This document shows positions 3,169 through 50,010 of a stretch of 64,000 nt of DNA, piece by piece. Every line of letters begins with the position of its first letter. The first letter of the stretch is position 1. Position numbers and translations under genes: made by a program. Source of the stretch: Minisyncoccota bacterium (lineage in GTDB: Bacteria > Patescibacteriota > Minisyncoccia > Phycocordibacterales > CSBR16-119); the NCBI GenBank assembly GCA_041389065.1, contig JAWKSM010000002.1, forward strand, positions 1,556 through 65,555, given 5' to 3'. A model generated the notes under the pieces. The model had not been told where the DNA came from. It worked only from the letters and a program-made list of their open reading frames with translations, and made no database searches.

Positions 3169-3645
3169 ATGACCATGAAGAACCTGTTCTTTCTCGTGAT
3201 GATGATGATCGCATTTACCTGGCCGAACAGCTTGGAAGCGCAACACTTGGTGCAAACAGCACCAAACTCCGAAAGTTGGACCATGCCTCCCACTACAACT
3301 CCAGGGCCCTTGTTTGTCTTCGACAACGACACGGAGGTCGAGATCTTACCAAGTGAAGACAACAAGCGTGTGAAGTCGATCGTTCTCAATATGCCAGACT
3401 CAAGATGGCAGGAGATACATGATTCAAATCCATTCCAATTATTGTCGATTGAATTCCTGTTGGCTGATGGGGGGACTATTCCAGCAGCCAATGTCGAGAT
3501 GCCAAAAGACATGAAAGGGGTTTTCACTATCCCCGGAAATGGAATGTTGGTTTTGAAGGATGGTGAGTTCTGCATTGGAAACCGTCCAGTGAAGCGTATA
3601 CAGCTTGCGAAAATTCAGATCGCTGAGAGTCAATCTACTCAGTAG
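3169..3645 (+). CDS. Hypothetical small secreted protein (GC-rich cassette A2)
   Basis: The ORF track starts at 3058, but the internal ATG at 3169 (or 3175) begins signal-like MTMKNLFFLVMMMIAFTWPNSLEAQ. TTGATA (3128-3133), 17 nt, TATTTT (3151-3156) lies upstream. Confidence 0.6.
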   Translation: MTMKNLFFLVMMMIAFTWPNSLEAQHLVQTAPNSESWTMPPTTTPGPLFVFDNDTEVEILPSEDNKRVKSIVLNMPDSRWQEIHDSNPFQLLSIEFLLADGGTIPAANVEMPKDMKGVFTIPGNGMLVLKDGEFCIGNRPVKRIQLAKIQIAESQSTQ

Positions 3646-4827: not shown

Positions 4828-6230
4828 TTAAAAATCGTTAAACGCACTTTCGGCACCAGAATCTGTCACCGCGCTATATCCTTCCATATGTTTTTCAATA
4901 GAAAGGAAAGTCGAGTTCTTTTCGTCGAAATACAAATCAGCTTTTCCAAGCGGACCATTTCTGTGTTTTTCGATAAGAACTTCTGTCATTCCGTTACTTT
5001 CTGTGTCTGATCTGGTGTTTCCGGCTCGGTCTTCTCGGTGAATAAACATAACAACATCGGCGTCTTGCTCGATCGAACCAGAGTCTCGAAGGTCAGAAAG
5101 ACGAGGTTTTCCGCCACGAGATTCAACGGCACGAGAAAGCTGTGAAAGTGCCAAAACAGGAACATCGAGTTCACGAGCCAAACCTTTTAGTGATCGTGAA
5201 ATTTCAGTAACTTGGTTTACCATTGAATCGTAGTTTTTACTTGTCATCATAAGTTGAAGGTAGTCAACAACAATCAAATCAAGTCCGTGTTCACTTTTCA
5301 TTTTTCTTGCGACTGATTTCATTTTCATTATTGAGTTTCCAGCTTGATCATCGATAAATATCTTTGCTTTTGAAAGTTCGCTCAAAGCTTCTTGAAGTGC
5401 TCCAAAATCTTGTTCGGCAGAAAGTTTTCCCGTTCGAAGTTTCCAAGCGTTCACTTTTGATTGTGCGGCGAGCATTCTTTGAGTTAGTTGGTTCGCACTC
5501 ATTTCGAGTGAGAATATTGCCACAGAAGATCCGTGTTTTGTTGCAGAGTTTCGAGCAATATCAAGAGCCAAAGTTGTCTTACCGACAGATGGTCTGGCTG
5601 CGAGAATAATCAAGTCAGATTTTTGAAGTCCAGCTAAAATGTTGTCTATTGAAGGATATCCAGTCGGCACACCTCTCATTCCACCTTTGCTTTCTTGTAA
5701 TTTTTCAAGTTCTTCCCAAGTTTCGTGAAGAGATTGTTTAATACTTACAAATTTTTTATCTCCACCGCCGGCATTTGTCACAGCAAAAACTTTTTTCTCG
5801 ACAGTGTCTAAAATATCTTCTACTTCATCGGCATTTTCTGCAAAAGCTGTTTCTGCCATAAATTCTCCAGCTTCGATTAATTTTCGAAGTACGTGTTTTT
5901 TGTGAACTATTCCCGCATAGTGTTTTATGTTTGTCGACGCCGGAACAGAATTTGTGAGTTCAATAATATATGATCTTCCGCCCACAGTTTCGAGCTGACT
6001 TTTTTCTTTTAGTTTTGTTGTAACAGAAAGTAAGTCTATTGGCTCGTTTTTGTTAAAGAGGTCGAGCATTGCTTTGTAGATTATTCGATGCTTTTCAGCA
6101 TAAAAAGAATCAGCGAAAATTGTGTCGATTATTTCGTTTAGTGCATCTGGGCGAAACGTATAGAACCCAAAACAGCTTTTTCTGAATCGAGACTATTTGG
6201 AGGTATTCTCATGTTTGATTGATTACTCAT
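4828..6230 (-). CDS. dnaB: Replicative DNA helicase DnaB, with the N-terminal ~25 codons in another frame (1-nt indel near 6150-6165)
   Basis: The 413 aa ORF has Walker A (ARPSVGKTTLALDIA) and DnaB C-terminal motifs. Upstream hand translation gives MSNQSNMRIPPNSLDSEKAVLGSI..., and after a frame change ...PDALNEIIDTIFADSFYAEKHRIIYKAMLDL, which is the normal DnaB N-terminus. Confidence 0.88.
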
Positions 6231-6293: not shown

Positions 6294-6505
6294 TTGACAA
6301 TTTTATTAAAATAGTTTAAAAAGTGTATCCTAATCAAAAACGGACCAAATGCAGATAAGACCGCCGTGAATGTTCTTTTAGGTGTTTCCAATATTGGACA
6401 GAGGTCAAGGTTTGGGAGAACCTTGGGTTTTGGTAAAGGTATTCGGAAAACCGCCAATGCGACTTACCTGACAAGGGGCTCTAAAAGGGCCCCTTTGTTA
6501 TTTTT
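6294..6505 (+). ncRNA. Candidate small RNA unit U0 (promoter to terminator, no credible ORF)
   Basis: TTGACA at 6294-6299. GC-rich body with hairpin CAAGGTT-TGGGAG-AACCTTG. Terminator AGGGGC...GCCCCT (6474-6494) plus TTGTTATTTTT. Divergent from dnaB. The longest ATG ORF is 6 codons. Confidence 0.35.
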
Positions 6506-6513
6506 ATAAATGC

Positions 6514-6711
6514 TTGACAAATATTTTGGATATGATATACTCTATTTTGTAATAGTACTTCGCTGCATGGCAGCCACAAGGTTTAATCACTCACAAACCG
6601 GCTATAGGCCATAATAACAAAGCTCTGTCCGCATACCCAGAGAATCCCGGAGTTCTCTGATGGGCTTACTAGCCCAACGGAACCCCGCCACATTGGTCGG
6701 GGTTCTTTTTT
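6514..6711 (+). ncRNA. Candidate small RNA unit U1 (promoter to terminator)
   Basis: TTGACA (6514-6519), 16 nt, TGaTATACT extended -10 (6533-6541). Hairpins GCTGC-ATG-GCAGC and CAGAGAA-TCCCGGA-GTTCTCTG. Terminator GAACCCCG...CGGGGTTC (6680-6705) plus T6. Only a 15-codon ORF with no context. Confidence 0.4.
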
Positions 6712-6730
6712 CATTTATTTCTATGAGCGC

Positions 6731-6892
6731 TTGACAAATATTTTGAATATGATATACTTTATGCAGTAATAAAAAGTTCTTAACACAGGTTATCTCAGCA
6801 CGTGTCCAATTTTGGCCGGATTAATGTGTGCATTAATACCTTTCTTCCTATGGAACCCCGTTGCGCAAGCGACGGGGGTTCTTTTCGTTTTT
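6731..6892 (+). promoter_or_regulatory. Unit U2: promoter, ~125-nt leader and intrinsic terminator directly upstream of trpS (candidate attenuator/leader RNA)
   Basis: The promoter is nearly identical to that of U1 (TTGACAAATATTTTGAATATGATATACT). Hairpin GGATTAATG-TGTG-CATTAATACC. Terminator GAACCCCGT...ACGGGGGTTC (6853-6881) plus a T-run ends 27 nt before the trpS ATG. UGGAACCCCG sits at the 5' foot of the stem. Confidence 0.45.
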
Positions 6893-6919: not shown

Positions 6920-7895
6920 ATGAATAAAAAAATTTTAGTTTCTGGAATAAAGCCGACAGGAAATCTACATCTTGGAAATTATTTTGGCGCAATGAAGCAG
7001 TTTGTTGAAATGCAAAATTTTGGAGAATACAACCCTTTTGTTTTTTTGGCTGACTATCACGCTCTTAATTCAATACAAAACAGGGAAGAGATGAAAAAAC
7101 TTTCTTTTGATTTGATCTGTGCATATCTGGCTGTGGGACTTGATCCTCAAAATGACTCTTTACAGACAGTCATCCTCTTCCAGAACACGCAGAGCTTACT
7201 TGGATTTTTCAATACTTTGGTTTCAATGCCTTGGCTTGTCGCGCTCATGCTTTTAAAAGTGCAGAAGCTAAAGATAAAGAAATAAATATTATGAACTTGT
7301 TATCCAGTTTTGATGCGTGACATCTGATGTATGACGCAGATATCGTGCCTGTAGGACAAGACCAAAAGCAACACGTGGAAATGGCTCGCGAGATTGCTAG
7401 AAAATTCAACCAAACTTTTTAGGAGAAACTTTTAAAGAACCAAAGAAATGATTAAAGAAGAAGTGGCTGTTGTGCCTGGAATAGACGGACAGAAAATGAG
7501 TAAAAGTTATAAAAATGTAATTCCACTTTTTGGTTCAGAAGAAGAAATTAAAAGCTGTTATGGGTATTATGAAGTGACTCAAAAAATCCAGAAGACAAGA
7601 AAAATCCAAAGACGAAGTTGTGATATATCAGATTTATAAACTTATGGCGACAGAAGACGAAAGATTTGCGATGGAAAAAGGATTGAAAGAAGGTGGAATG
7701 GGATATGGCGATGCAAAAAAAGAGCTTCTTAGAAAAGTTTTAGAATATTTTGGTCCAATGAAGCAAAAGTATGACGAGTTCCAGAAAAATCCTGAAAAAG
7801 TCTATTCTATTTTAGAAGAAGGGGAGGAGAAGAAAGTAAGAAAATTGGCAGAAGAAAAAATGAAGAAAGTTAAAGAAGCTGTGGGGTTGATGTAA
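6920..7895 (+). pseudogene. trpS: Tryptophanyl-tRNA synthetase, reading frame broken at least 5 times
   Basis: N-terminus MNKKILVSGIKPTGNLHLGNYFGA (HIGH-type). Fragments in other frames read ...[31 protein letters not shown], ...GETFKEPKE, MIKEEVAVVPGIDGQKMSKS (KMSKS), and a C-terminal 91 aa ORF. Breaks coincide with A/T homopolymer runs. Confidence 0.85.
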
Positions 7896-9565: not shown

Positions 9566-10894
9566 TTATTGAAGTAGTTGCCAATTTAGCCAAAACACCA
9601 GCATTCCGGCAATGTAGCCAATAAACGCAGGTAGTGTACCTCGTTTTATGTACCACATTGAATCAAACTTCATTGCACCCATGGCTGCCACACCAGCTGC
9701 TGAACCAATAGGAAGCAAAGATCCGCCTGTTCCTGCACAGAACGCAAGCAATATCCAGAATAGATCATCTTGTGGTACTTTTGGGTACATACCCATTCCA
9801 CCACTTACGAGAGGAACATTATCAACAACGCTCGAAGCAACACCGATCACACCGTTTTTGACGTATGGATCTTCTATGTGTCTATCAAGGTTTTGAGCTG
9901 CCATCTCAAGATGACCTGTTGTCTCAAGTCCTCCAACTGCAAGCAATATACCAAGGAAAAACAGGATGCTCTTCATGTCAATCCTTCGAAGGATTCCTGC
10001 AACCTGTAGATGTCCTCGGTTGTCTTTGTCCTTGTGAAGGAATTCTGCAACCACGAGTACAACTCCTAGTCCGGGCATTATACCGAGTACGGGCTCAATC
10101 CCTGCAACCATTTTCAGGATGGGTACAGATATCAGTGCAGATAGTCCGAGCCAAAAGATCAGGTTACGCTCCCTTATTGTTACGGCATCACCTGGAACAT
10201 CTTTTCTGGTTTTTGTCGGCTTAATGACGTCACCTTTCAGGTTTCTTCCGACAATGAGAATCGGAAGTATTGCACAGACAATACTGGGGATGAATACGTG
10301 TTTGATCAAAGCCCACGTGGTTACTTTTCCAGCAACCCAAAGCATGATCGTAGTTACGTCCCCAATAGGACTCCAGGCGCCACCCGCATTTGCTGTGATT
10401 ACGACTATTAACGCAAATGTCCATTGCGTTTTTTTGTCGTAGATGAGTTTTCCTATCAGTGAACACATAACAATTGTTGTTGTTAGATTGTCTAGTGCCG
10501 CACTGAAAAAGAACGATAATACACTTATAATCCAAAATAGTTTATACGTATTCACAGTGTTAATCCTGTCTGTTATGACATGGAATCCACCATGACCGTC
10601 AATTGTCTCAACTATCATCATGGCACATATTAGGAATATAAGAGTCTTCGAGATCTCTCCTAAGTGCCTAGTGAGTTCATGGTTAAGTGCTTCATTGCTC
10701 ACATTTCCATCAAAGAGGCCATTTTGCACTCCAATCATAATAATTGACCAAATAATCGATCCGCCAAGCAAGGCGGTTGGAGTTTTGTCAACTTTGATCT
10801 TATGTTCAAAGATGATCGCGATAAAAGTAACTATGAATACGCCCAAAATCGCCCAAAAGAATGGACTAGCATGTATCAAGTGTTCCGCTATCAT
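9566..10894 (-). CDS. ArsB/NhaD-superfamily ion permease (Na+/H+ antiporter NhaD-like)
   Basis: 442 aa polytopic membrane protein. Overall pattern (..AALDNLTTTIVM.., ..ANAGGAWSPIGDVTT.., ..GSLLPIGSAAGV..) is typical of NhaD/ArsB/citrate-transporter permeases. Higher GC than flanks; plus-strand ORFs across it are shadows. Confidence 0.65.
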   Translation of the reverse strand: MIAEHLIHASPFFWAILGVFIVTFIAIIFEHKIKVDKTPTALLGGSIIWSIIMIGVQNGLFDGNVSNEALNHELTRHLGEISKTLIFLICAMMIVETIDGHGGFHVITDRINTVNTYKLFWIISVLSFFFSAALDNLTTTIVMCSLIGKLIYDKKTQWTFALIVVITANAGGAWSPIGDVTTIMLWVAGKVTTWALIKHVFIPSIVCAILPILIVGRNLKGDVIKPTKTRKDVPGDAVTIRERNLIFWLGLSALISVPILKMVAGIEPVLGIMPGLGVVLVVAEFLHKDKDNRGHLQVAGILRRIDMKSILFFLGILLAVGGLETTGHLEMAAQNLDRHIEDPYVKNGVIGVASSVVDNVPLVSGGMGMYPKVPQDDLFWILLAFCAGTGGSLLPIGSAAGVAAMGAMKFDSMWYIKRGTLPAFIGYIAGMLVFWLNWQLLQ

Positions 10895-11057: not shown

Positions 11058-11756
11058 ATGAAAAAGTCGTACCTTAATATCCCGGGGCAGGGAAAAATGT
11101 TCAATCGGTTTCTCTTGGAGGCAGGCAAACTTGGCTTTTCGCCAATTTCACCTATCCGAGAAGCCAGGAATCAGATAATGCAAAGCGTTATCCCTCCCGA
11201 TAGTCCTCGTGTTGACGATCTTCGTGGTCAAGTTATTGTGCAGAAACAGGTTGATGATCTTACGATACGAGTTATCACAACTTTTGATTCTGTTGCAAAT
11301 AAGTTCCCAGTAAGAGGAAAGTTGTGGGTACGTATCACAACTCTTTCTGAAATGGGTAAGGAGGAGAGGTTGTTTACCTGGAAGACAACTAGGAAAATAA
11401 CACACAAGTCGAATTTCCTTGAGCGAGCGCTCTATATGATGGAGATTCTGGCAATTGCCTTGGAGCATCGCCCATATGATCCAAGCAACAAGACTTTGCT
11501 CATGAAGCTCGTTGAAGTGGACGACATGTTCAATCCTTTCATGTGGAAGGGGGTAAAGGGAAACGCTGGTTACTTCATAACCAAGGAGATGTTGCCCAAA
11601 GGCAAACCTAAGTTGCTAGAGTTCTATCGACGCTGGCGGAAGAGTCGTTGGTATTATGAACATGTCGCTCGAAGTGAAAAGAGGTTGGGGTATGAACCTC
11701 GTCGTGAAAGGGATATCAGGAAGCCATACACGCGTGGCAAGAGAGCCAAGAAGTGA
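11058..11756 (+). CDS. Hypothetical basic protein (GC-rich cassette C2)
   Basis: The ORF track starts at an alternative codon at 11022; the first ATG at 11058 gives 232 aa (MKKSYLNIPGQGK...). Arg/Lys-rich C-terminus ..RRWRKSRWYYEHVARSEKRLGYEPRRERDIRKPYTRGKRAKK. No family recognised. Confidence 0.6.
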   Translation: MKKSYLNIPGQGKMFNRFLLEAGKLGFSPISPIREARNQIMQSVIPPDSPRVDDLRGQVIVQKQVDDLTIRVITTFDSVANKFPVRGKLWVRITTLSEMGKEERLFTWKTTRKITHKSNFLERALYMMEILAIALEHRPYDPSNKTLLMKLVEVDDMFNPFMWKGVKGNAGYFITKEMLPKGKPKLLEFYRRWRKSRWYYEHVARSEKRLGYEPRRERDIRKPYTRGKRAKK

Positions 11757-13875: not shown

Positions 13876-14568
13876 ATGACGACAGTGAAGGGAAGCAGTC
13901 TGACCAAGAAGTATTACAACGTCGTGGTTATCGGTATCGGGGATACCATGACCAGCAATACGGCGTTGCTCCATCAGATCGGCCGCGTGAAGAGTGTCGG
14001 AGGTGGCAGGATCACTACCACTCCGAAACTGGTGCACTTGCTGGGAGGTCGCGGTATCAAAGCCGAGAGCTTCACCGAGGGCAACGAGGTTGTTATGCCC
14101 CTCGGCTATCCGAAGAACGGATTGCCCCCAGGTGTGACGGCGCAGATCCTCGCAAGTACGAACAACGAAAAGGGTATCACACCCTTCGGGATCGTGGTCG
14201 TCGATATGGGAACCGCCCCCACTGTGGAGCAGGGTACGGACATCTTCAGCGAGCTGAGGAAGTCCATTTCCCTCGATTCCATCGTGGCAACGGTTGCAGC
14301 GATGAAGGCCGGGAAGATCGTCTGCACGACCCCGAAGCAGCTCAAGTCCGTGCTCGATTACATCGAGCAGAAGGGTGACATCACGGAAGATGTGTATGCT
14401 GCCATGGCGAAATGGTGCTGCTACCAGGTGGCAATGTCCATCACCGCTTGGTCCGAGAGCTTCGGATCTGGGGCTTTCAAGGGCTACAAGGGGGGTGATT
14501 CCAGCATCCTCGAAAAGGCTGGGTTCTTCACGGAAGAAGAAGTGACCGAAGAAGCAGTCGCCCAGTAG
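13876..14568 (+). CDS. Hypothetical 230 aa protein (cassette D, the most GC-rich ORF in the window)
   Basis: A sampled line is 60% GC. Third codon positions are overwhelmingly G/C (acg gtg aag agc ctg acc aag ...). The ORF fills the space between its own promoter and terminator. The 251 aa minus-strand ORF is a shadow. No family recognised. Confidence 0.65.
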   Translation: MTTVKGSSLTKKYYNVVVIGIGDTMTSNTALLHQIGRVKSVGGGRITTTPKLVHLLGGRGIKAESFTEGNEVVMPLGYPKNGLPPGVTAQILASTNNEKGITPFGIVVVDMGTAPTVEQGTDIFSELRKSISLDSIVATVAAMKAGKIVCTTPKQLKSVLDYIEQKGDITEDVYAAMAKWCCYQVAMSITAWSESFGSGAFKGYKGGDSSILEKAGFFTEEEVTEEAVAQ

Positions 14569-22711: not shown

Positions 22712-24022
22712 ATGTCAGAAAGAAAAATTATAACAAGAATGGCTCCAAGTCCAACTGGTAAATTTCACGTTGGTTCTGCAAGAACTGCTCTTTTTTCTTA
22801 TTTATTTGCAAAAAAGCATGGCGGAGAATTTATTTTAAGAATTGAAGATACAGACAAAGAACGCTCAAAACCAGAATTTGAAGAAAATATTATCGATTCT
22901 TTTTCTTGGCTTGGTTTAAAGTACGATCATTTTTATAGACAATCAGAGCGAACAGAAATTTACAAAGAACATATTCAAAAACTTCTTGATTCTGGAAATG
23001 CTTATATTTCAAAAGAAGAGGCGACTGAAGGAAAACGAGGTGAAGTAATTCGTTTCAAAAACCCAAATATAAAAATAAAATTTAACGATATTATTTTAGG
23101 CGAGATCGAAGTCGACACAACTGATCTCGGTGACTTTGTTATTGCAAAAGACGTTGATACTCCGCTTTATCATTTGACTGTTGTTGTAGACGACGGACTG
23201 ATGGAAGTGAGTCATATAATCCGCGCCCAAGAACACATTGCAAATACTCCACGTCAGATTTTAATCATGGAAGCTCTTGGATTTACAAGACCTTTGTATG
23301 CGCACATTCCGCTTGTTTTGGCGCCGGACAAAACAAAGCTTTCAAAGCGTCACGGAGCGACGGCACTTCTTGATTTTAAAGATATGGGATATTTCAAAGA
23401 GGCTGTGATAAATTTCTTGGCTTTTATTGGTTGGAATCCTGGAACAGAAAAAGAATTGTTTACTATGGAAGAATTAATCCACGAATTTTCTTTGGAAAAA
23501 GTTCAAAAGGGTGGCGGAGTTTTCAATATTGAAAAGCTTGATTGGTTTAACAAACAATATCTTTTAGGAAAATCAAAAGAAGAAATTATTTTAGGAATAA
23601 AACATTTTGCAGAAGTTCCTGAAGATATTTTAGACAGAGCTTGGCCAACACTTATCGAGAGAATTCACAAATTTAGTGATTTAAAAAATGAAAATCTTAC
23701 TTTCTATAACTCTTTGCCGAGTTACGAAACAAGAGATTTGATCTGGAAAAATTCTGACGAATATCAAACAAAAAATTATTTAAAAGATTTAATTTCTATT
23801 TTAGAAAAAGCCAATTTCGAAAGTGTGGAATCTGTTAAGTCTTCGGTTTTTGATTATGCTGAAGAAAAGGGAAGAGGCGATGTTTTGTGGCCAATGAGAT
23901 TTGCTTTGTCTGGACTTTCAAAATCTCCTGATCCTTTTACTTTGGCTTATATATTTGGAAAAATTGAAACTATAAAAAGGTTAGAAGCTGCGTATAAAAA
24001 GATTTCTGAAATTGTTTCTTAG
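22712..24022 (+). CDS. gltX: Glutamyl-tRNA synthetase (short, 436 aa)
   Basis: RMAPSPTGKFHVGSARTALFSYLFAK..RIEDTD and KLSKR motifs. Confidence 0.9.
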   Translation: MSERKIITRMAPSPTGKFHVGSARTALFSYLFAKKHGGEFILRIEDTDKERSKPEFEENIIDSFSWLGLKYDHFYRQSERTEIYKEHIQKLLDSGNAYISKEEATEGKRGEVIRFKNPNIKIKFNDIILGEIEVDTTDLGDFVIAKDVDTPLYHLTVVVDDGLMEVSHIIRAQEHIANTPRQILIMEALGFTRPLYAHIPLVLAPDKTKLSKRHGATALLDFKDMGYFKEAVINFLAFIGWNPGTEKELFTMEELIHEFSLEKVQKGGGVFNIEKLDWFNKQYLLGKSKEEIILGIKHFAEVPEDILDRAWPTLIERIHKFSDLKNENLTFYNSLPSYETRDLIWKNSDEYQTKNYLKDLISILEKANFESVESVKSSVFDYAEEKGRGDVLWPMRFALSGLSKSPDPFTLAYIFGKIETIKRLEAAYKKISEIVS

Positions 24023-24030
24023 ATAAAAAA

Positions 24031-24060
24031 GAAGACCCTCGCACGTGGCGGGGGTCTTTC
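24031..24060. terminator. Convergent terminator between gltX and cassette E
   Basis: GAAGACCCTCGC-ACGTG-GCGGGGGTCTTTC imperfect stem. The T-run (TTTTTTATCT) is strong on the minus strand. Confidence 0.65.
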
Positions 24061-24079
24061 ATCATCAGGCCTGTATGAC

Positions 24080-24286
24080 CTAACGACGACGTCTGTTGCG
24101 CACCTTGGCTGCGCTCCTGCAGGAACGGAACTTCGGTTGTTTCCTGACACCATACCGCTTCTTCGGCGGTTTGAGGTATTCCGCCATCTGGCCGGAAGCC
24201 TCGATGTTCGAGGTGATGGAAGCACTGACTTCCACAGGACTCAGTGCGAAGGTGACCAGGGCCACCAAGATAATGAGCTTTTTCAT
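24080..24286 (-). CDS. Small secreted, strongly cationic protein (GC-rich cassette E)
   Basis: 68 aa. Signal-like MKKLIILVALVTFALSPVEVSA, then ..KPPKKRYGVRKQPKFRSCRSAAKVRNRRRR. The two other long ORFs at this locus (24019-24225 on the same strand in another frame, 24096-24317 on the plus strand) lack a start context. Confidence 0.55.
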   Translation of the reverse strand: MKKLIILVALVTFALSPVEVSASITSNIEASGQMAEYLKPPKKRYGVRKQPKFRSCRSAAKVRNRRRR

Positions 24287-24313
24287 GTTCGGTGAATGTG
24301 TTGGTTTAAGTAT

Positions 24314-24342
24314 ATAATATCATATTTAAATATATTTGTCAA
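24314..24342 (-). promoter_or_regulatory. Promoter of cassette E (shared promoter module)
   Basis: Minus strand reads CTTGACAAATATATTTAAATATGATATTAT. TTGACA (24337-24342), 17 nt, TATTAT (24314-19). Confidence 0.6.
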
Positions 24343-24404
24343 GTATTAAATTATTTTTAAGTTATCCACACCAGACCTTTGTAAATAGGGTATTATAGAA
24401 GGTA

Positions 24405-25712
24405 ATGAGTAAATTACTGCTTCAAGCTCTAATAGTGGCTTTTATGGGCATTTTCACGGCTTCTACGGCTTTTGCGCAGTCTGTTTCAGAGCTTGAAAGT
24501 CAAATAAAATCGAGAAACGCCGATGTTCAGGCCCTTCAACTCGAACTTCAAAAACTTCAATCAGAACTTAAAGTTATAAACGATAAATCAAATACTTTGG
24601 GAAATGCAGTTTCTGATCTCGATACCACAAGAAAAAAACTCCTCACAGAAATAAAAATTGCAGAAGATAAAATAAAGTCTACAAATAATTCAATTTCGAT
24701 TTTGGAAATTGAAATTGGCGACAAAGAAACTTCAATAAACAAAGCAAAAAAAGCTATTAGTTCTGGAATAAAAAGAATGCATGAAATCGATGCTGAAAAT
24801 ATTACATATAAAATTTTGTCTAAGAAAAGTTTTTCTGATGCACTAAACGAAACAAATGAGATAATCGACTTTCATAAAAAACTTCGAGAAAATGTTTCTG
24901 AGCTTCGAATAATTCAAAAAGGTTTATCAGAAACTATTTTGGAAAAAGAAGAAGCGAAAAGTAAATTGCTCGATTATAAAACAGAAGTGAACGGACAGAA
25001 AGTTGTTGTTGAAAAAAACAAAAGTGAAAAAGAAGCGCTTTTAAAAGAAACCAAAAATCAAGAAGCAGAATATCAAAAAATTATTGCAGAAAAAGAAAAG
25101 CTCAGGGCGCAGTTCGAGGCTGAGCTTCAAGACTTGGAATCAAAAATTCAGTTTCAGCTCGATCCTTCTTCTTATCCAAAACCTAAAAATGGAATTTTAG
25201 CTTGGCCACTTGCTTCTGTTTTGATAACCCAAAGATTTGGTCTGACAGATGATTCTCCAACGCTTTATAATTACCGAACTGGGGCTTGGCAGGGAAAACA
25301 CGCCGGAGTTGATTTTAGAGCAAACAACGATAAGGTTTTTGCTATGGCTGATGGAGTTGTTTTGGGAACAGGGGACACGGATGGCGTTTGTCCACGAGCA
25401 AGTACCGGTGTTTGGGTTTTGATTAAATACGACAATGGTCTGGCAAATACTTTCTTTCACTTAACTTCTTCGACTGTTAAGAAGGGTCAAAGAGTAAAGG
25501 CGGGGGATTTGGTTGCTTATAGCGGAAATACAGGATACTCAACGGCGCCACACTTACACGTTGGACTGATGCCAGCTTCACTTGTTTCTGTAAAAACTTG
25601 GCCAAGCGCAGGATGTCCAGGGAAAATGTATACAACGCCGGTTGTTGCTGGTTCTCAGTATTTAAATCCTCTCGATTATTTACCAAAGGCAACAGATGCA
25701 ATGTTTAAATAA
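24405..25712 (+). CDS. Coiled-coil M23 (LytM) peptidoglycan endopeptidase, EnvC-like architecture
   Basis: Signal peptide, ~240 aa of heptad-rich sequence, then HAGVDF...GNTGYSTAPHLHVG (the HxxxD and HxH M23 motifs). Confidence 0.8.
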   Translation: MSKLLLQALIVAFMGIFTASTAFAQSVSELESQIKSRNADVQALQLELQKLQSELKVINDKSNTLGNAVSDLDTTRKKLLTEIKIAEDKIKSTNNSISILEIEIGDKETSINKAKKAISSGIKRMHEIDAENITYKILSKKSFSDALNETNEIIDFHKKLRENVSELRIIQKGLSETILEKEEAKSKLLDYKTEVNGQKVVVEKNKSEKEALLKETKNQEAEYQKIIAEKEKLRAQFEAELQDLESKIQFQLDPSSYPKPKNGILAWPLASVLITQRFGLTDDSPTLYNYRTGAWQGKHAGVDFRANNDKVFAMADGVVLGTGDTDGVCPRASTGVWVLIKYDNGLANTFFHLTSSTVKKGQRVKAGDLVAYSGNTGYSTAPHLHVGLMPASLVSVKTWPSAGCPGKMYTTPVVAGSQYLNPLDYLPKATDAMFK

Positions 25713-30672: not shown

Positions 30673-31908
30673 ATGCAAAGTAAAAAATTTAATAAATCGA
30701 AGAAATCAAATTTTAAAGGTAAACGTAATTTTTCTAATAAATTTCGTGGAAAAAATAACAATAAAAGAGGAGGAAAAAATCGTTTTGGTCAAATAAGTAA
30801 CGCTGATGTATCAAAATTTGTAAATAAAGTTACTGTGCCAGAAACTGTGGAGGTGTTTGTGCCGGAGCATACTTTCTCTGATTTTTTGATCGATGAAAGA
30901 CTTAAAAAAAATATAATTAAACGTGGATATAAAACACCTACGCCAATTCAAGACAAATCTATTCCTGAAGCTTTGAAAGGAAATGATGTTGTTGGAATCG
31001 CAAATACTGGGACAGGGAAGACTGGGGCTTTTCTTATTCCAACTATTCACAAAGTTCTAAATAATCCTTCTGAAAAAATCTTGGTTGTTGTTCCGACAAG
31101 AGAACTTGCTCTTCAAATTAACGATGAGTTTAGAGCTTTTAGAATGGAAAAAATGTATTCTGTTTGTTGCGTTGGTGGGATGCCGATCTACAGACAAATC
31201 AAAGATTTAAAAATGAACAATAATTTTGTTATCGGTACTCCAGGAAGATTTAAGGATCTAATTGATCGTAAGGTTTTAGACCTGTCACTTTTCAATACGA
31301 TTGTTTTAGACGAAGCAGATAGAATGCTTGATATGGGATTTGTAAATGATATGCGTTTTATGATGAGTCAAATGCCAGAAAATAAACAAACTTTGTTTTT
31401 TTCTGCAACACTTTCTTCAGAAATTGAAAAACTTATAAAAGATTTCTTAAAAAATCCTGTAAAAATTTCTGTTAAAACAGGTGACACTTCAAAAAATATC
31501 GAGCAAGATGTTGTTATGGTTAAACCTGGATTAGATAAAATTGAAGTTTTGCATGACCTTCTAATCAGTCCTGAATTTCAAAAAGTTTTAATTTTCGGAA
31601 GAACAAAGCACGGGGTTGAAAAGCTATCGAATAATCTAAACAAGCGCGGATTTAAAACCGGTTCAATTCACGGTGACAAACGTCAATCTCAAAGACAAGG
31701 AGTACTTAATCTTTTCAAGAAAAACGAAATACAGATGCTTGTAGCGACCGATGTGGCTGCAAGAGGTTTAGATATACCTGACGTAAGTCATGTTATCAAC
31801 TACGATGTGCCAGCTACACATGAAGACTATATTCACAGAATTGGCCGAACTGGACGAGGAGACAAAAAGGGGAAGGCGTTAACTTTACTTGAATCTAAAA
31901 ATAAATAA
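30673..31908 (+). CDS. DEAD-box ATP-dependent RNA helicase
   Basis: ANTGTGKT (motif I), DEAD, SAT and HRIGRTGR motifs, with a basic N-terminal tail. Confidence 0.92.
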   Translation: MQSKKFNKSKKSNFKGKRNFSNKFRGKNNNKRGGKNRFGQISNADVSKFVNKVTVPETVEVFVPEHTFSDFLIDERLKKNIIKRGYKTPTPIQDKSIPEALKGNDVVGIANTGTGKTGAFLIPTIHKVLNNPSEKILVVVPTRELALQINDEFRAFRMEKMYSVCCVGGMPIYRQIKDLKMNNNFVIGTPGRFKDLIDRKVLDLSLFNTIVLDEADRMLDMGFVNDMRFMMSQMPENKQTLFFSATLSSEIEKLIKDFLKNPVKISVKTGDTSKNIEQDVVMVKPGLDKIEVLHDLLISPEFQKVLIFGRTKHGVEKLSNNLNKRGFKTGSIHGDKRQSQRQGVLNLFKKNEIQMLVATDVAARGLDIPDVSHVINYDVPATHEDYIHRIGRTGRGDKKGKALTLLESKNK

Positions 31909-32178
31909 ATTTATCTAACTCAGACTTTTTAAATTTTTAATTGAAGGGGAAGGGGTTAACCTGAATACGGCCTTATTTATAAGTAATAAGCGTCGTAAAA
32001 GATATATTGTGCGACGTTAATATAATAAAGAACCATAGATACTTATTAAATTAAAATGATTAAAAACCCTACTTCCCCTAACCTTTACACTTAAAATTTA
32101 TTCTAGGTAAATATTTTTATTTTTTATAAATATAAAAAATACTTTTACTTCACTTCCCCTACCACCTGGCCTAAAAAA
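31909..32178 (+). other. Noncoding region with repeated AGGGGAAG / CTTCCCCT motif copies and an AT-only perfect inverted repeat
   Basis: Sense copy 31944-31960 repeats 31867-31883, which lies inside the helicase 3' end. Antisense copies are at 32065-32083 and 32148-32166. ATTTTTTATA-AA-TATAAAAAAT is at 32119-32140. No ORF. Confidence 0.5.
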
Positions 32179-32216
32179 GAAGAAGCCACGTCTATGAGAC
32201 GGGCTTCTTTCTTTGA
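32179..32216. terminator. Bidirectional terminator
   Basis: AGAAGCC-A-CGTCT-ATG-AGACG-GGCTTCT, with T-rich tracts on both strands. Confidence 0.7.
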
Positions 32217-32496
32217 GGTCTATTTCGAGACTTCCAGAATCCATAATTTCGAATGATCGGTATCCTTCCCTTTAAAAAATAGATGTATACATACCTAGGA
32301 ATTATAAATACTAATACCATTGGAACCACTAAAAATGAAAATTTCTTTAGTGACATTGAAATATATCTCTACCGAGAAATCCTAATACCTTGATTGAAAA
32401 ATAGAGCGTGGCTAGAGACGCAAATAATATAACCAGCAAGAACAATCCATCCATCAGAAAAGCTGCCATTTTGAACGCCTCAGCTTTTTTCTTCAT
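32192..32496 (-). pseudogene. Small two-TM membrane protein, apparently split by one frameshift (~32350)
   Basis: Hand translation gives MKKKAEAFKMAAFLMDGLFLLVILFASLATLYFSIKVLGFLGRDIFQCH* overlapping MSLKKFSFLVVPMVLVFIIPRYVYIYFLKGRIP... in the next frame. Both pieces are below the ORF-track size cutoff. Confidence 0.35.
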
Positions 32497-32561
32497 GACT
32501 TAAGAGTTTCAGGGGTTCGTATAAAAGATTAATATATTTAGCTTTAAAGTCAATTGCCTTC

Positions 32562-32864
32562 TTAGCAAGAGCTTGTGTAGTCATAGCCTGACTTTTTTGC
32601 GTCTTCTCCACTCTTAAAATAAATTCTGTTTGTCAACTTTATTCTATTCACCGCCTTACACCCTCTTGGGTAATACTTTGTTCCGTTTATAGAAGCAACA
32701 TAGTTAAAACTTTTAAAGTTCATATCAATTTTTGAAAGACTTGGAACAATAAATTCAACTTCGCTATCATTTCCGCCCTGCTCTAAAGCAGACATTCTCC
32801 CAAGTCCAAAAGACAAAATTCCGACAAGGATGATGATTATAATGACGATATACTCTTTTTTCAT
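32562..32864 (-). CDS. Membrane-anchored protein with a small Cys-containing C-terminal domain (Ada-type metal-binding-like)
   Basis: 100 aa with N-terminal TM. ..GTKYYPRGCKAVNRIKLTNRIYFKSGEDAKKSGYDYTSSC. Pattern-level call only. Confidence 0.45.
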   Translation of the reverse strand: MKKEYIVIIIIILVGILSFGLGRMSALEQGGNDSEVEFIVPSLSKIDMNFKSFNYVASINGTKYYPRGCKAVNRIKLTNRIYFKSGEDAKKSGYDYTSSC

Positions 32865-33072
32865 ATATTCATTAAAGCATATATTTCCCTTTATTAACTC
32901 AAATTTAAGTGGAAAATATCTAAAAATAAGCCTTGATTACCCTATCCCCCCATTTATTGAAAAAGACTTGCATTTTTTAACCATATATCGTATACTTGTG
33001 CTCGTTATTATTTAAGTAAAGATTCAGATATTTCCTTACAAATTAAGGCAATATTAAGAAAATAAGTATAGT

Positions 33073-45813: not shown

Positions 45814-46893
45814 ATGATACAGACCAAAGGAGGGATTGACGAAGATATCTTCAATGCCGTGACTGAAAGCTCATTGCTTGATAAGCAAGGCATGCATAGT
45901 TTGACAATAACAGCACCCGATGGCTCAAAGCTCGAGTACAGAAGCCAAGTTCCAGGAGGTGGTGAAAGCATTCCCAAGGGCGGATTTCGTGGCGGAGCTG
46001 AAGACATTGATCATCAGCCCAAGCCAAAGAAAGACCGCACTGATGAAGTGCTGGAAGTCATCAAGGATACCCGGAACATTTCGGAAGAGGTTCGCACAGA
46101 AGTCAAAAAGACCAATAAAACCTTGGAAGGTGCGAAGGTGTATGATGAAGGTGAAGCCGAAAAGAAGAGTAAGCTTACTTGGGGAGGCGCGATCAAAGCT
46201 ATTGTGATGGCAGCCTCAGTGGTAGCTATTCTCTACTTGGCATATCTGAAAGTAAGCTCGTCCAACAGCTCGAGTCAAAGCCAAGTCGTGGCAAGCACCC
46301 CGACTGGCAATACTCAAGTGGCAACACCACCTGCACCAATGCCAATGAACGTTACGATGACTACGTCGTCTACGACTTCCCAGCAACCCACTCCGCAACC
46401 TCCACCACCGGCCCAAAAGCCGAAGGCTGAGGTTTCTAAGAAGGAGTTGAAAGCGGCTCTAAGGTCGGTATACGACAACGGGGTGAACCTCCGAAGCTTT
46501 TCAAGCCAATGGAGCGACACCACGAAAGCGGAAATTGTCATCGCGGCAATCGTCGCTGTTCCTGATGGATTGAGTAGTGAAGAAAGGGAGAAAAAGGTCG
46601 AGAGGGTTTCAAATGCAACCAAGCAATACCTTCAAATAGACCATAAAGACCCAACAATCCCTGATCGGATCACCCTTCTCAACACCTATGCACTTCACTG
46701 TGCGTTTGGTAGAGATTCACACCTCGGAAACAACATCGACTGGCTTGCCAATTCATACGTAACCAGTGATGATAGTTACCCGACAACCACAGAGACAGAG
46801 TTCTCAAAGGGTGTGAAGGAACGGATCGAACGGTTGAAGGAGATCATCAAAGAGGATGGCTACGAAACAAAGAACTTCCAATGGCTAAAGTGA
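45814..46893 (+). CDS. Hypothetical bitopic membrane protein with a Pro/Thr/Gln-rich linker (GC-rich cassette I, gene 1)
   Basis: First ATG at 45814 (MIQTKGG..). Central TM AIKAIVMAASVVAILYLAYL, then SSSNSSSQSQVVASTPTGNTQVATPPAPMP..QQPTPQPPPPAQKPK, then a ~160 aa C-terminal domain. A sampled line is 52% GC. The other ORFs overlapping it (on both strands) are shadows. Confidence 0.65.
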   Translation: MIQTKGGIDEDIFNAVTESSLLDKQGMHSLTITAPDGSKLEYRSQVPGGGESIPKGGFRGGAEDIDHQPKPKKDRTDEVLEVIKDTRNISEEVRTEVKKTNKTLEGAKVYDEGEAEKKSKLTWGGAIKAIVMAASVVAILYLAYLKVSSSNSSSQSQVVASTPTGNTQVATPPAPMPMNVTMTTSSTTSQQPTPQPPPPAQKPKAEVSKKELKAALRSVYDNGVNLRSFSSQWSDTTKAEIVIAAIVAVPDGLSSEEREKKVERVSNATKQYLQIDHKDPTIPDRITLLNTYALHCAFGRDSHLGNNIDWLANSYVTSDDSYPTTTETEFSKGVKERIERLKEIIKEDGYETKNFQWLK

Positions 46894-47534
46894 TCATCCT
46901 CCGAAGCGGTCTCCAGAGTGGCTCCGGGAAAAAGAGGGCTGAAGATAATCGTTTTACGATGTCCGACGCCCTCTACCTTATCCCGGTCTTACTCCTTTTC
47001 ATCGTCGTTACAGTCGACAACCCGTTTACCGATACTTCGGTTAAGTTTACGGGAGTGTCAACTGATTCGGAAACCCTGGTCAACAGTAGTTCAGACAGGG
47101 GTGACTACCTCGACCTGGGCTACATAAGTCCAGTAGACGCGCCCATCAAAATAACCTCAGAGATTGGAAGGAGGTGGGGGCGTAAACATAAGGGTCAGGA
47201 CATCGACACCGAAGCAGGTGTAGTCGTCAGGTCATGCTCACCAGGAAATGGCCAGGTTATCTTTGTTGAACCTAAAGACATTGGAGACTTTGGAAAACAT
47301 GTTCGCGTGAAGATAGATGGTGCAGTAATAATATATGCACATCTTCAAGAAATAGCGGATGGAATAACCAAAGGCGCCATTGTGGAGCAAGGTAGACCAC
47401 TTGGAAAAGTTGGTTCAACTGGCAGTGTTACACCTGGTCTGGGAGGAGACGGTTCACACCTGCACATTGAGTTTACGAACACAGATCCGGATTTCAAAAC
47501 CCCGATCTTTGGACACAAACAACGAAAGACATGA
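46881..47534 (+). CDS. Membrane-anchored M23/LytM-like peptidase (cassette I, gene 2)
   Basis: The ATG overlaps the upstream stop by 13 nt (ATGGCTAAAGTGA). TM LYLIPVLLLFIVV; HKGQDID and GSTGSVTPGLGGDGSHLHIEF motifs. The start could instead be M27 (46959). Confidence 0.65.
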   Translation: MAKVIILRSGLQSGSGKKRAEDNRFTMSDALYLIPVLLLFIVVTVDNPFTDTSVKFTGVSTDSETLVNSSSDRGDYLDLGYISPVDAPIKITSEIGRRWGRKHKGQDIDTEAGVVVRSCSPGNGQVIFVEPKDIGDFGKHVRVKIDGAVIIYAHLQEIADGITKGAIVEQGRPLGKVGSTGSVTPGLGGDGSHLHIEFTNTDPDFKTPIFGHKQRKT

Positions 47535-47535
47535 G

Positions 47536-47565
47536 GCCGGGATTCGCAGAGAATCCCGGCTTTTT
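47536..47565 (+). terminator. Intrinsic terminator after cassette I
   Basis: GCCGGGATTC-GCAGA-GAATCCCGGC plus T5. Confidence 0.85.
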
Positions 47566-47640
47566 GTATTTAATTTTTATAAAAAATAAAAAACCCAAAT
47601 GGGCTTATTATGAACTATAAGCATTTTAATTATTTACGCA

Positions 47641-47664
47641 AAAATCCCCTTTCGGGGATTTTTT
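47641..47664 (-). terminator. Terminator immediately 3' of tRNA-Ile
   Basis: AAAATCCCC-TTTC-GGGGATTTT, a symmetric hairpin with T-runs on both strands. Confidence 0.75.
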
Positions 47665-47665
47665 G

Positions 47666-47738
47666 TGCGCGCGCCAGGGGTCGAACCTGGGACCTTTCGA
47701 GTATCAGTCGAATGCTCTACCAGCTGAGCTACGCGCGC
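47666..47738 (-). tRNA. tRNA-Ile (anticodon GAU)
   Basis: The reverse complement folds by hand into a perfect cloverleaf: GCGCGCG-TA-GCTC-AGCTGGTA-GAGC-A-TTCGA-CTGATAC-TCGAA-AGGTC-CCAGG-TTCGACC-CCTGG-CGCGCGC-A. No encoded CCA. Confidence 0.93.
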
Positions 47739-49490: not shown

Positions 49491-49519
49491 TTGACAAAAT
49501 ATATTAAATATGATATATT
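49491..49519 (+). promoter_or_regulatory. Promoter of cassette J (shared promoter module)
   Basis: TTGACA (49491-96), 17 nt, TGaTATATT extended -10 (49511-19). Confidence 0.6.
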
Positions 49520-49559
49520 ATATTTAGACAAACTGTACATAAACCAAAGCGCACAAGCT

Positions 49560-49955
49560 ATGGCACGAACATACAACCGCAACAAGACCAAGCGTCAAGG
49601 TAATAACATCCTGCGTGAACAAATTGCATCTGAACAAGAAAGGCAAGATGCAATAGATCAAGAGATCGAAGCACACGAAAGAGATCTCGCTGAAATGGAA
49701 GAAGATGAAGAAAGAAGGGCTTGGGAGCTAGAAGAAATCTATAACAAGTATATTGGTGGTGTGTCTACAAATGAGAGCGATGTACTAAAGGCATTGAAAA
49801 CAAGACCCTGCCCCGCCTGTCTGTGTGAACATCATCCATCAGCCTATTGCCCAGCCGATGAGGACGTTCATCGCTTCAACGAGAGCCAACTTGAACTTGA
49901 AGATTTCTACCACGCAAGAGATCTGTGGGAAGAAATGATGGGAAGAATCCCATAG
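49560..49955 (+). CDS. Hypothetical 131 aa protein with an acidic helix and a Cys/His cluster (GC-rich cassette J)
   Basis: First ATG after the promoter: MARTYNRNKTKRQGNN.., then an acidic helix, then ..RPCPACLCEHHPSAYCPADEDVH... Confidence 0.55.
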   Translation: MARTYNRNKTKRQGNNILREQIASEQERQDAIDQEIEAHERDLAEMEEDEERRAWELEEIYNKYIGGVSTNESDVLKALKTRPCPACLCEHHPSAYCPADEDVHRFNESQLELEDFYHARDLWEEMMGRIP

Positions 49956-49973
49956 CTGAAAAGCACAGGTTAA

Positions 49974-50010
49974 GCCCCGAGCGCAAATGCGCCGGGGCTT
50001 TCTCTATTTT
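49974..50010. terminator. Convergent terminator between cassette J and the transglycosylase gene
   Basis: GCCCCGAGCGC-AAAT-GCGCCGGGGC followed by TTTCTCTATTTT. Confidence 0.8.

Follow-up and report, generated by a model that had tools for sequence, protein, structure and literature searches.

A small, GC-rich gene on the minus strand of a 64,000-nucleotide stretch of a metagenome-assembled Paceibacterota genome (contig JAWKSM010000002.1; the whole stretch is called the window below) lies between gltX and a gene for an M23 peptidase. Its relatives, found in a few chromosomes of the candidate phyla radiation (CPR, or Patescibacteria) and on GC-rich phage contigs, share an N-terminal export signal and a polybasic C-terminal core. 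Judged by its pattern of substitutions, the open reading frame (ORF) is a protein-coding gene, with purifying selection on that core. The interpretation preferred here, and regarded as probable, is that the gene forms an autonomous cassette for a Sec-exported peptide whose core would bind a polyanionic partner at the cell surface.

CPR genomes are rich in small unannotated genes, and little is known about the surface and external molecules of these bacteria. What had been a "hypothetical protein" becomes a defined, testable family, with four shared features: a predicted export signal; a polybasic core of about 25 residues; invariant Tyr, Gly, and Cys residues; and a link to phages.

The coding frame and its transcription unit

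The ORF runs from ATG to TAG (24286 to 24080, minus strand) and specifies 68 residues. Length alone is little evidence of coding, because three further ORFs of 52–73 residues overlap it in other frames of the same GC-rich stretch. Relatives were fetched via gltX. The cassette occupies the equivalent gltX/M23 site in three of them (L001, L002, and L003, with gltX identities to the window of 98%, 85%, and 74%), where the syntenic ORFs remain in frame at 68, 67, and 68 residues, respectively. The other-frame ORFs are not kept. That only the peptide frame is conserved places the ORF beyond chance. A preliminary description of this DNA, made from the sequence alone, had named loss of frame or length in close relatives as grounds for doubt; no such loss was found, and the substitutions are codon-like.

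The window and L001 differ at 17 nucleotides, 10 of them at third positions, and the ratio of nonsynonymous to synonymous differences per site (pN/pS) is 0.23. The synonymous value itself (pS, 0.20) is comparable to those of gltX (0.24) and the M23 gene (0.33). The core, Y-G-V-R-K-Q-P-K-F-R-S-C (YGVRKQPKFRSC..A), is kept across copies despite many synonymous codon changes. CPR and phage copies exchange GGT, GGC, and GGG; GTC, GTA, GTT, and GTG; AGG, CGT, and CGC; CCG and CCC; and TCC, TCG, and TCT. Length differences among the copies are in-frame. Codons 23–39, which precede the core, cannot be aligned between the window and L002 or L003 (38–45% nucleotide identity).

All of the elements that the preliminary description listed are present: a promoter module; a leader of about 20 nt; a signal-like N-terminus; a GC-rich ORF; and a strong terminator. 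The peptide is exactly as quoted there. What went unstated is that every one of these elements lies on the minus strand.

The promoter (24314–24342) is of the sigma-70 type: a −35 element, TTGACA (24342–24337); a 17-nt spacer; and a TG-extended −10 element, TATTAT (24319–24314). It matches 11 of the 12 consensus positions in addition to the TG, and is the top-scoring site of the region. It sits within a module of about 43 nt that is 77% identical over 43 nt to positions 49491–49533, and related promoter modules are present in the window at 6498–6554 and 6715–6771 (sites 6514 and 6731). The predicted 5' leader (24287–24307), whose start is placed from the −10 position, is about 20 nt long and A/C-rich, and has no Shine-Dalgarno sequence. 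Such a leader is normal here, since only 2 of the 45 long genes in the window have Shine-Dalgarno-like sequences.

At the 3' end, a first hairpin of 13 pairs (24059–24089) encloses the TAG stop codon (24080–24082), which lies within its 5' arm. A second, GC-rich hairpin (24058–24032) and its U-tract (24031–24025) form an intrinsic terminator (24025–24058). Both hairpins and the U-tract (24089–24025) together fold at −33.2 kcal/mol (z = −5.2), a tandem arrangement that a simple terminator scan did not catch. On the plus strand the second hairpin also closes the convergent gltX, and the terminator appears to be bidirectional. The stretch from 24342 to 24025 is read as an autonomous one-gene cassette that is probably strongly expressed.

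The placement of the stop codon is not peculiar to the window. In the window, L002, L003, and the CPR-like locus L067, it falls either within the first of the paired 3' hairpins or at the base of that hairpin, and the double-hairpin 3' end thus recurs in several CPR cassettes.

In AT-rich genomes, GC-rich islands bounded by a strong promoter and terminator are also typical of RNA genes, and this one might instead specify a structured non-coding or dual-function RNA in which the ORF is incidental. Its folding is stable (z = −3.9), and the cassettes at 6514 and 6731 have a like promoter and no ORF. However, the two 3' hairpins account for most of the folding signal, and the opposite strand is about as stable when folded. 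What is conserved, moreover, is the amino-acid sequence, and this conservation extends to phage copies of quite different nucleotide sequence; on the CPR side, about four distinct sequences were available. Rfam at its gathering threshold returned only tRNA-Ile for the whole window, and at E ≤ 10 it returned only noise for positions 23900–24450. An incidental ORF in an RNA gene is scarcely credible.

Composition sets the gene sharply apart from its surroundings. The GC content of the ORF is 0.55, and that of its third codon positions (GC3) is 0.69, in a genome of 36% GC. The 45 long ORFs of the window have a mean GC3 of 0.29 ± 0.09, and the flanking gltX and M23 genes have values of 0.23 and 0.26. 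The same amino acids under genome codon usage gave a GC3 of 0.236 ± 0.048, and none of 20,000 simulations exceeded 0.456. The phage copies reach 0.80–0.89, and the GC-rich codons of the cassette agree with an origin in a GC-rich donor. Simple recent transfer is nevertheless an inadequate explanation, because GC3 stays at 0.62–0.70 in every one of these cassettes, whereas their flanking genes have reached synonymous saturation among the window, L002, and L003 (pS 0.65–0.77) and have GC3 of 0.21–0.29. Moreover, cassette pS between L002 and L003 is 0.32, versus 0.72–0.74 in the flanks. Both observations belong on the side of the RNA alternative, the second hinting at constraint on the mRNA sequence.

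This gap in pS, together with peptide similarity at odds with gltX similarity, raised the possibility that the L002 and L003 lineages had recently exchanged the cassette. The idea found no support: identity across the cassette (67–92% per 60-nt window) is not above that of the flanks. Synonymous sites under selection for mRNA stability, structure, or translation would be the more economical explanation.

Relatives in chromosomes and phage contigs

The window peptide is recorded in NCBI as hypothetical protein R3B39_01045 of a Candidatus Paceibacterota metagenome-assembled genome. A lookup of the exact 68-residue product returned no record, and a single-sequence search of 5.8 billion proteins matched only R3B39_01045 itself. 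Relatives emerged only through synteny-based recovery and profile building. The family search combined an alignment-based scan of metagenome contigs with profile searches of 5.8 × 10^9 and 1.84 × 10^9 proteins, and yielded about 25 clusters at 90% identity in all. The profile search of the larger set gave 19 clusters; the exhaustive profile search of the 1.84 × 10^9 representatives gave 11 representative clusters at E ≤ 1e-3.

Sequence searches of Pfam, NCBIfam, PHROG, PADLOC, and PDB found no family, only sub-threshold matches to the signal-peptide region; in PADLOC, seven family members gave 0 families at E ≤ 1. The literature was searched for the motif and for cationic peptides secreted by CPR bacteria; nothing relevant came up, and the motif occurs in no paper searched. 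Syntenic sites of more distant relatives (L006–L011, L042, and L045) contain no homologue. The preliminary description had proposed looking for similar short cationic ORFs in relatives, and these do exist; the connection to phages was not part of that proposal.

The family takes three forms. The first consists of stand-alone cassettes for peptides of 68–87 residues in AT-rich cellular genomes (35–39% GC): the window clade; L064 (P0014); L067 (P0016), which has further genes in common with the window; P0015; and P0021–P0023. These cassettes have their own TTGACA-N16/17-TAnnnT promoter, an A/C-rich leader, GC3 of 0.62–0.70, and a strong terminator. Equivalent promoters precede the homologues in L001–L003, L064, and L067, and strong terminators follow those in L002, L003, L064, and L067.

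Locus L064 (GCA_020850255.1) is labeled "Bacteroidetes bacterium" in NCBI. Given its sigma-70-type promoters (TTGACA/TATAAT), CPR-like gene content, and 39% GC, the locus may be mislabeled. Immediately upstream of its cassette are cas1 and a gene for TnpB (OrfB_IS605).

The second form, of 53–54 residues (for example, MKYLLLTLALFISAPNIHA followed by ESGPGKRKSVYGVRKQPKKRTCKSAKRIMNRRHR), is found on phage contigs of 54–59% GC. These contigs (L057–L063 and L070–L072, including a 68-kb IMG/VR genome and a 67-kb contig) carry PHROG families along with DUF932, GP88, P22_Y8K6-like, and DnaB genes. A/C-rich leaders are present at these loci as well. A tblastx comparison of the window with the phage loci found the peptide gene alone in common. 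A tblastn search with a phage-type member against 50,697 GenBank phage records gave no match; the neighboring DUF932 gene has only distant mycobacteriophage and cyanophage matches (23–27% identity); and two more IMG/VR scans with subfamily alignments again returned the one contig only.

The third form (P0017, P0019, and P0024) has a lipobox and is found on short phage-like contigs. Its core begins four residues after the lipidated Cys, or about thirteen in P0024. From the sequences recovered, the family is rare and previously unannotated, present only in a few CPR (Paceibacterota-like) chromosomes and in some uncultured, GC-rich freshwater phages.

A hairpin adjoins the phage peptide gene, downstream in four loci (L059, position 2930; L060, 3994; L062, 2728; and L070, 8224) and upstream in another (L063, 5889). 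It reads GAGCG-CATCCTCAA-CGCTC in the four and GCCGCG-CATCCTTCA-CGCGGC in L063. The stems show compensatory changes, the loop is conserved, and each locus has one copy.

Predicted export, the polybasic core, and possible roles

The signal peptide of the window protein, MKKLIILVALVTFALSPVEVSA, is encoded by codons 1–22 (24221–24286). It is composed of the n-region MKK, the h-region LIILVALVTFAL of 12–13 residues, and SPVEVSA. The cleavage motif has Pro at −6 and V-S-A at −3 to −1, and the cut is predicted after A22. Despite sequence drift, 16 of the 16 tabulated members have this n-h-c architecture, ending in a small residue at −1: a short basic n-region, then a hydrophobic stretch of 11–15 residues, often with Pro. 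The mature N-terminus in the window, SITSNIEASGQMAEY, has a net charge of −2 across its first 15 residues, and phage mature sequences start with ESGPG or NDGPG. In all members the first mature residues are acidic or neutral, the spacer is 5 to 30 residues long, and the basic cluster begins 5–30 residues in. Export is well supported by a signal that is always present and by first mature residues that are never basic.

Homologues P0019 (LASC), P0017 (FTSC), and P0024 (MSSC), and only these, have a lipobox in place of the signal peptidase I (SPase I) site, and the lipobox region of P0019 is a weak match to lipoprotein signal models. The window signal peptide has no Cys, and hence no lipobox; the Cys in L002 and L003 (LIFC) has Phe at −1. 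Because the lipobox replaces the SPase I site while the core is unchanged, the core presumably works outside the cytoplasm. That the peptide is exported via Sec is thus a strong inference. The "exported polycationic peptide" of the preliminary description is confirmed as to charge (46 residues, net +13); as to export, the signal architecture is what speaks for it.

The alternative topology has the N-terminus as a membrane anchor and the polybasic tail in the cytoplasm, where it would bind nucleic acid or ribosomes, or depolarize the membrane like a type I toxin. At least 14 positive charges lie C-terminal to the lone hydrophobic segment, as the positive-inside rule would have it for an anchor. 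A small, stand-alone cassette, a strongly structured mRNA, and a patchy, phage-associated distribution are all features that recur in type I toxin loci; in addition, the Arg-rich helix resembles RNA-binding arginine-rich motifs. However, the h-region is short (about 11–13 residues) and is followed by Pro and an AXA-type cleavage site, and in the phage versions it is insufficient for a stable transmembrane helix. Acidic or neutral residues C-terminal of the h-region favor an N-in/C-out orientation, and lipidation of the lipobox variants requires translocation. The window gene differs from type I toxin loci also in that the plus strand has no promoter-like site within 24031–24342 for an antisense RNA, a weak or non-consensus one being possible. 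Retention in the cytoplasm is improbable.

The predicted mature peptide has two parts. Codons 23–39 (24170–24220) encode a variable, weakly acidic spacer of 17 residues, SITSNIEASGQMAEYLK, with net charge −1. Codons 40–68 (24083–24169) encode the conserved polybasic core of 29 residues, PPKKRYGVRKQPKFRSCRSAAKVRNRRRR, with net charge +14. Residues Y45, G46, V47, K49, C56, and A59 (window numbering) are invariant, and the family motif is Y-G-V-R/K-K-x3-4-F/K-R/T-S/T-C-K/R-x-A plus a basic helix. AlphaFold2, run with the family alignment, predicts a helix at residues 2–15, an extended YGVRKQPKFR segment, and a helix at 56–67 (predicted local distance difference test, pLDDT, 87–89). The spacer is predicted with low confidence, as if disordered (pLDDT 52–56).

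The preliminary description gave the peptide a "protamine-like Arg tail". That tail, RNRRRR or RNRRHR, is found only in the window and L001; elsewhere the endings are Lys-rich or mixed (KKLRR, KKVRR, NRRHR, KRRGNW, and AIGH). The tail is thus lineage-specific; conservation across the family lies in Y45-G-V-x-K...C56-x-x-A59, set in a polybasic stretch. Conservation of the core rather than the flanks, with its Tyr, Gly, and single Cys, points to a defined partner and not to bulk charge alone.

Nor does the suggestion of a membrane-active peptide fare well. The C-terminal helix of the window protein has a mean hydrophobicity of −1.09, and its hydrophobic moment (0.34) is no higher than the mean of its shuffles (0.35). 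In several homologues the moment rises to 0.54–0.68, a value reached by 2–7% of shuffles. With low hydrophobicity and a moment no higher than that of its shuffles, the window peptide does not resemble a pore-forming amphipathic antimicrobial peptide. It looks like a polyanion binder.

A diffusible antimicrobial or host-permeabilizing peptide, with the acidic spacer as a neutralizing pro-piece, is unlikely, though several observations speak for it. Family members are small, are predicted to be exported, and carry net charges of +11 to +16; the spacer is acidic or neutral in the cellular versions; the promoter looks strong and constitutive; and the raised helix moment of several members would suit such an activity. 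Moreover, one cationic peptide of a phage, phiKT gp28, is known to disrupt the outer membrane (10.1101/515445), and cultivated CPR bacteria are episymbionts (PMC11623550). On the other hand, the window helix is not amphipathic, and its hydrophobicity of about −1 is far from that of membrane-inserting peptides. The unit is monocistronic, with no linked immunity gene. Lipid-anchored homologues cannot act at a distance, and the phage copies lie outside lysis cassettes, with DUF932, phrog_1273, and replication genes as neighbors. Finally, the mature regions of antimicrobial peptides usually diversify, whereas the cationic core is the most conserved part of this family.

Extreme basic charge and low hydrophobicity, together with PKK/PKKR-type motifs, an Arg/Lys helix, and predicted export, would also suit an extracellular DNA-binding peptide. 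CPR bacteria depend on scavenged nucleotides, and such a peptide could capture or condense environmental DNA for uptake; in phages, it could interfere with DNA entry. However, no competence or pilus genes are linked at any locus examined, there is no homology to known DNA-binding domains, and the idea is purely compositional. It is very improbable.

In the preferred interpretation, a polyanion binder acting at the cell surface, the near-consensus promoter would drive a GC-rich mRNA of about 280 nt without a Shine-Dalgarno sequence. Translation would yield the 68-residue prepeptide, which would pass through Sec and be cleaved after V-S-A22. The resulting 46-residue peptide would consist of the short, weakly acidic spacer and the 29-residue core, with its net charge of +14. 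Outside the cytoplasm, the core would bind a polyanion at the cell surface, whether an envelope polymer, the head groups of the membrane, or nucleic acid. Through its one invariant Cys, it may form disulfide-linked dimers. The peptide might act on the producer's own envelope, either by masking the surface or by excluding incoming phage or DNA. Action on its own envelope is favored over diffusible killing because the lipid-anchored phage homologues cannot diffuse away.

Several points weigh against this interpretation. The signal peptide was judged manually, and the cleavage site was placed by the −3/−1 rule only. Passage through Sec would have to carry 13–17 net positive charges against the membrane potential, which is unfavorable, so the efficiency of export is uncertain. 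The phage copies lie in an early-type operon and overlap the upstream ORF, an arrangement unlike that of a moron, and neither prophage nor integrase context was seen. An extra constraint on the mRNA would be needed beyond recent transfer from a GC-rich donor. What suggests surface masking or exclusion is analogy, along with the lipobox variants. No partner, immunity, or receptor gene is linked at the loci examined, where the neighbors differ from one locus to the next. The analysis shows the structure and conservation of the gene, purifying selection on its core, the distribution of the family, and the atypical codon usage; how strongly the gene is expressed, whether its product is exported, where that product is cleaved, what it targets, and what it does are read from sequence features.

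A more far-reaching version is speculative and rather unlikely. It holds that the family is an undescribed class of exported, polycationic, envelope-binding peptides that phages and CPR bacteria exchange, and that is kept in chromosomes as a moron-like cassette. As minimal barriers or manipulators made of one peptide, its members would coat anionic receptors, bind incoming DNA and so exclude phages, or act on the envelope of the cell that hosts the CPR bacterium. The mRNA would be under selection too, given the persistence of GC-rich codons in a genome of 36% GC.

The comparison with morons is instructive. A phage moron, such as that encoding HK97 gp15, has its own promoter and terminator and a deviating composition, and in many cases its product is a small envelope protein that keeps out other phages (PMC3594210). 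The window cassette likewise has its own promoter and terminator (as do those at L064 and L067) and a GC content sharply unlike that of its neighbors. It is present in L003 and absent from the closest relative of L003, L004 (88% gltX identity), and it has homologues on phages. It differs in its location, which is between the housekeeping genes gltX and M23 and not in a prophage; synteny is maintained across L001–L004, with only the cassette of about 300 bp differing. Furthermore, the databases searched reveal no sequence relation to gp15 or to other described moron proteins.

In size (about 50 residues), high cationic charge, partly helical structure, and phage association, the family also resembles the disruptin phiKT gp28 and peptides of the LL-37 type, which are thought to act on the envelope (10.1101/515445). 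However, phiKT gp28 lacks an export signal, is an amphipathic peptide that associates with membranes through hydrophobic contacts, and is encoded between the endolysin and holin genes (10.1101/515445). The window family carries a signal of the Sec or lipoprotein type and is very low in hydrophobicity; in the window member, amphipathicity is weak or absent. Its phage copies are further set apart from phiKT gp28 by the early or replication-type genes near them (DUF932, phrog_1273, and DnaB), which are not lysis genes. A role in a lysis cassette, as spanin or disruptin, was considered and rejected: no endolysin, holin, or spanin gene is near the phage copies.

Enterocin P and lactococcin 972 are bacteriocins secreted through Sec by means of a signal peptide. 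The window family is like them in being ribosomally made, in having a Sec signal and not a double-glycine leader, and in giving a small cationic product. It differs in its far higher charge density, far lower hydrophobicity, and lipid-anchored variants, and it has neither an adjacent immunity gene nor a Pfam or NCBIfam bacteriocin match.

Phage T5 Llp and the Cor proteins of phi80 and N15 are small lipoproteins for superinfection exclusion. Homologues P0017, P0019, and P0024 are similar in that they are very small predicted lipoproteins, encoded among early or accessory genes, that would act on their own envelope (Cor is cited in PMC3594210). The window protein differs, having an SPase I site and no lipobox, and there is no sequence similarity.

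Protamine, HIV (human immunodeficiency virus) Tat with its YGRKKRRQRRR, and the arginine-rich motifs of lambda N and Rev belong to the cytoplasm or nucleus and have no signal peptide. The family shares with them a very high density of Arg and Lys, a YG(R/V)(R/K)K sequence followed by basic residues, and a short basic helix. This likeness is compositional only; the window family has a signal, and its Arg run is not conserved.

What is new is the sequence family; the general kind, small exported cationic peptides and moron-like cassettes, is known. The phage–CPR link and the maintenance of GC-rich coding are unusual, and current understanding is not overturned. The peptide is short enough to synthesize, making tests of binding, antimicrobial activity, and phage exclusion straightforward, and the cassette is a possible model for the upkeep of atypical composition in reduced genomes. 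Should this prove to be an ordinary surface-associated basic peptide, the value would be modest: one more small-protein family annotated.

Other features of the region

The gltX/M23 intergenic site differs in content in a more distant relative. In L005 it contains a different GC-rich ORF (5346–5528, minus strand) with a TTGACC promoter and an A/C-rich leader; the 60-residue product is rich in Pro and Cys and has no signal peptide. Small foreign cassettes would seem to have a hot spot here. In the window, a perfect DnaA-box consensus, TTATCCACA (24362–24370, plus strand), lies between the promoter of the cassette and the M23 gene; it is the sole perfect copy in the 64 kb. It is kept in five of five syntenic loci, including L004, which lacks the cassette.

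Two tandem units on the plus strand, 6498–6710 and 6715–6890, have promoter modules that are 84% identical over 57 nt. Each would give a GC-rich transcript of about 120–150 nt and ends in a strong terminator; no ORF in either exceeds 34 residues, and Rfam matches neither. Immediately downstream of the pair, a tryptophanyl-tRNA synthetase-like gene starts at 6920. The units may be small RNAs or a leader.

Positions 49491–50005 (plus strand) appear to be another cassette of like style. The promoter module and an A/C-rich leader without a Shine-Dalgarno sequence precede a GC-rich ORF (49560–49955) for an acidic, Cys/His-containing protein of 131 residues, which has its own terminator. A DnaA-box-like sequence, GTGGATAA, lies 10 nt upstream of its −35 element.

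Raised GC3 (0.40–0.57) with A/C-rich leaders such as caacacagaacaactcaaacacaaccgaccc is found in further genes, most without a Pfam match: 3169–3645, 9566–10894, 11058–11756, 13876–14568, 45814–46893, and 46881–47534. The last two fall within the region 45814–47738, in which a GC-rich two-gene block encodes a 359-residue protein without a Pfam match and a second M23 peptidase (GC3 0.46–0.51). This block abuts tRNA-Ile(GAT) (47665–47738) and may be an integrated element.

Cumulative GC skew rises to about 32 kb and falls thereafter (turning at about 31000–33000 in the window), where genes switch from mostly plus-strand to mostly minus-strand. The turn may mark a replication terminus or merely the change in gene orientation.

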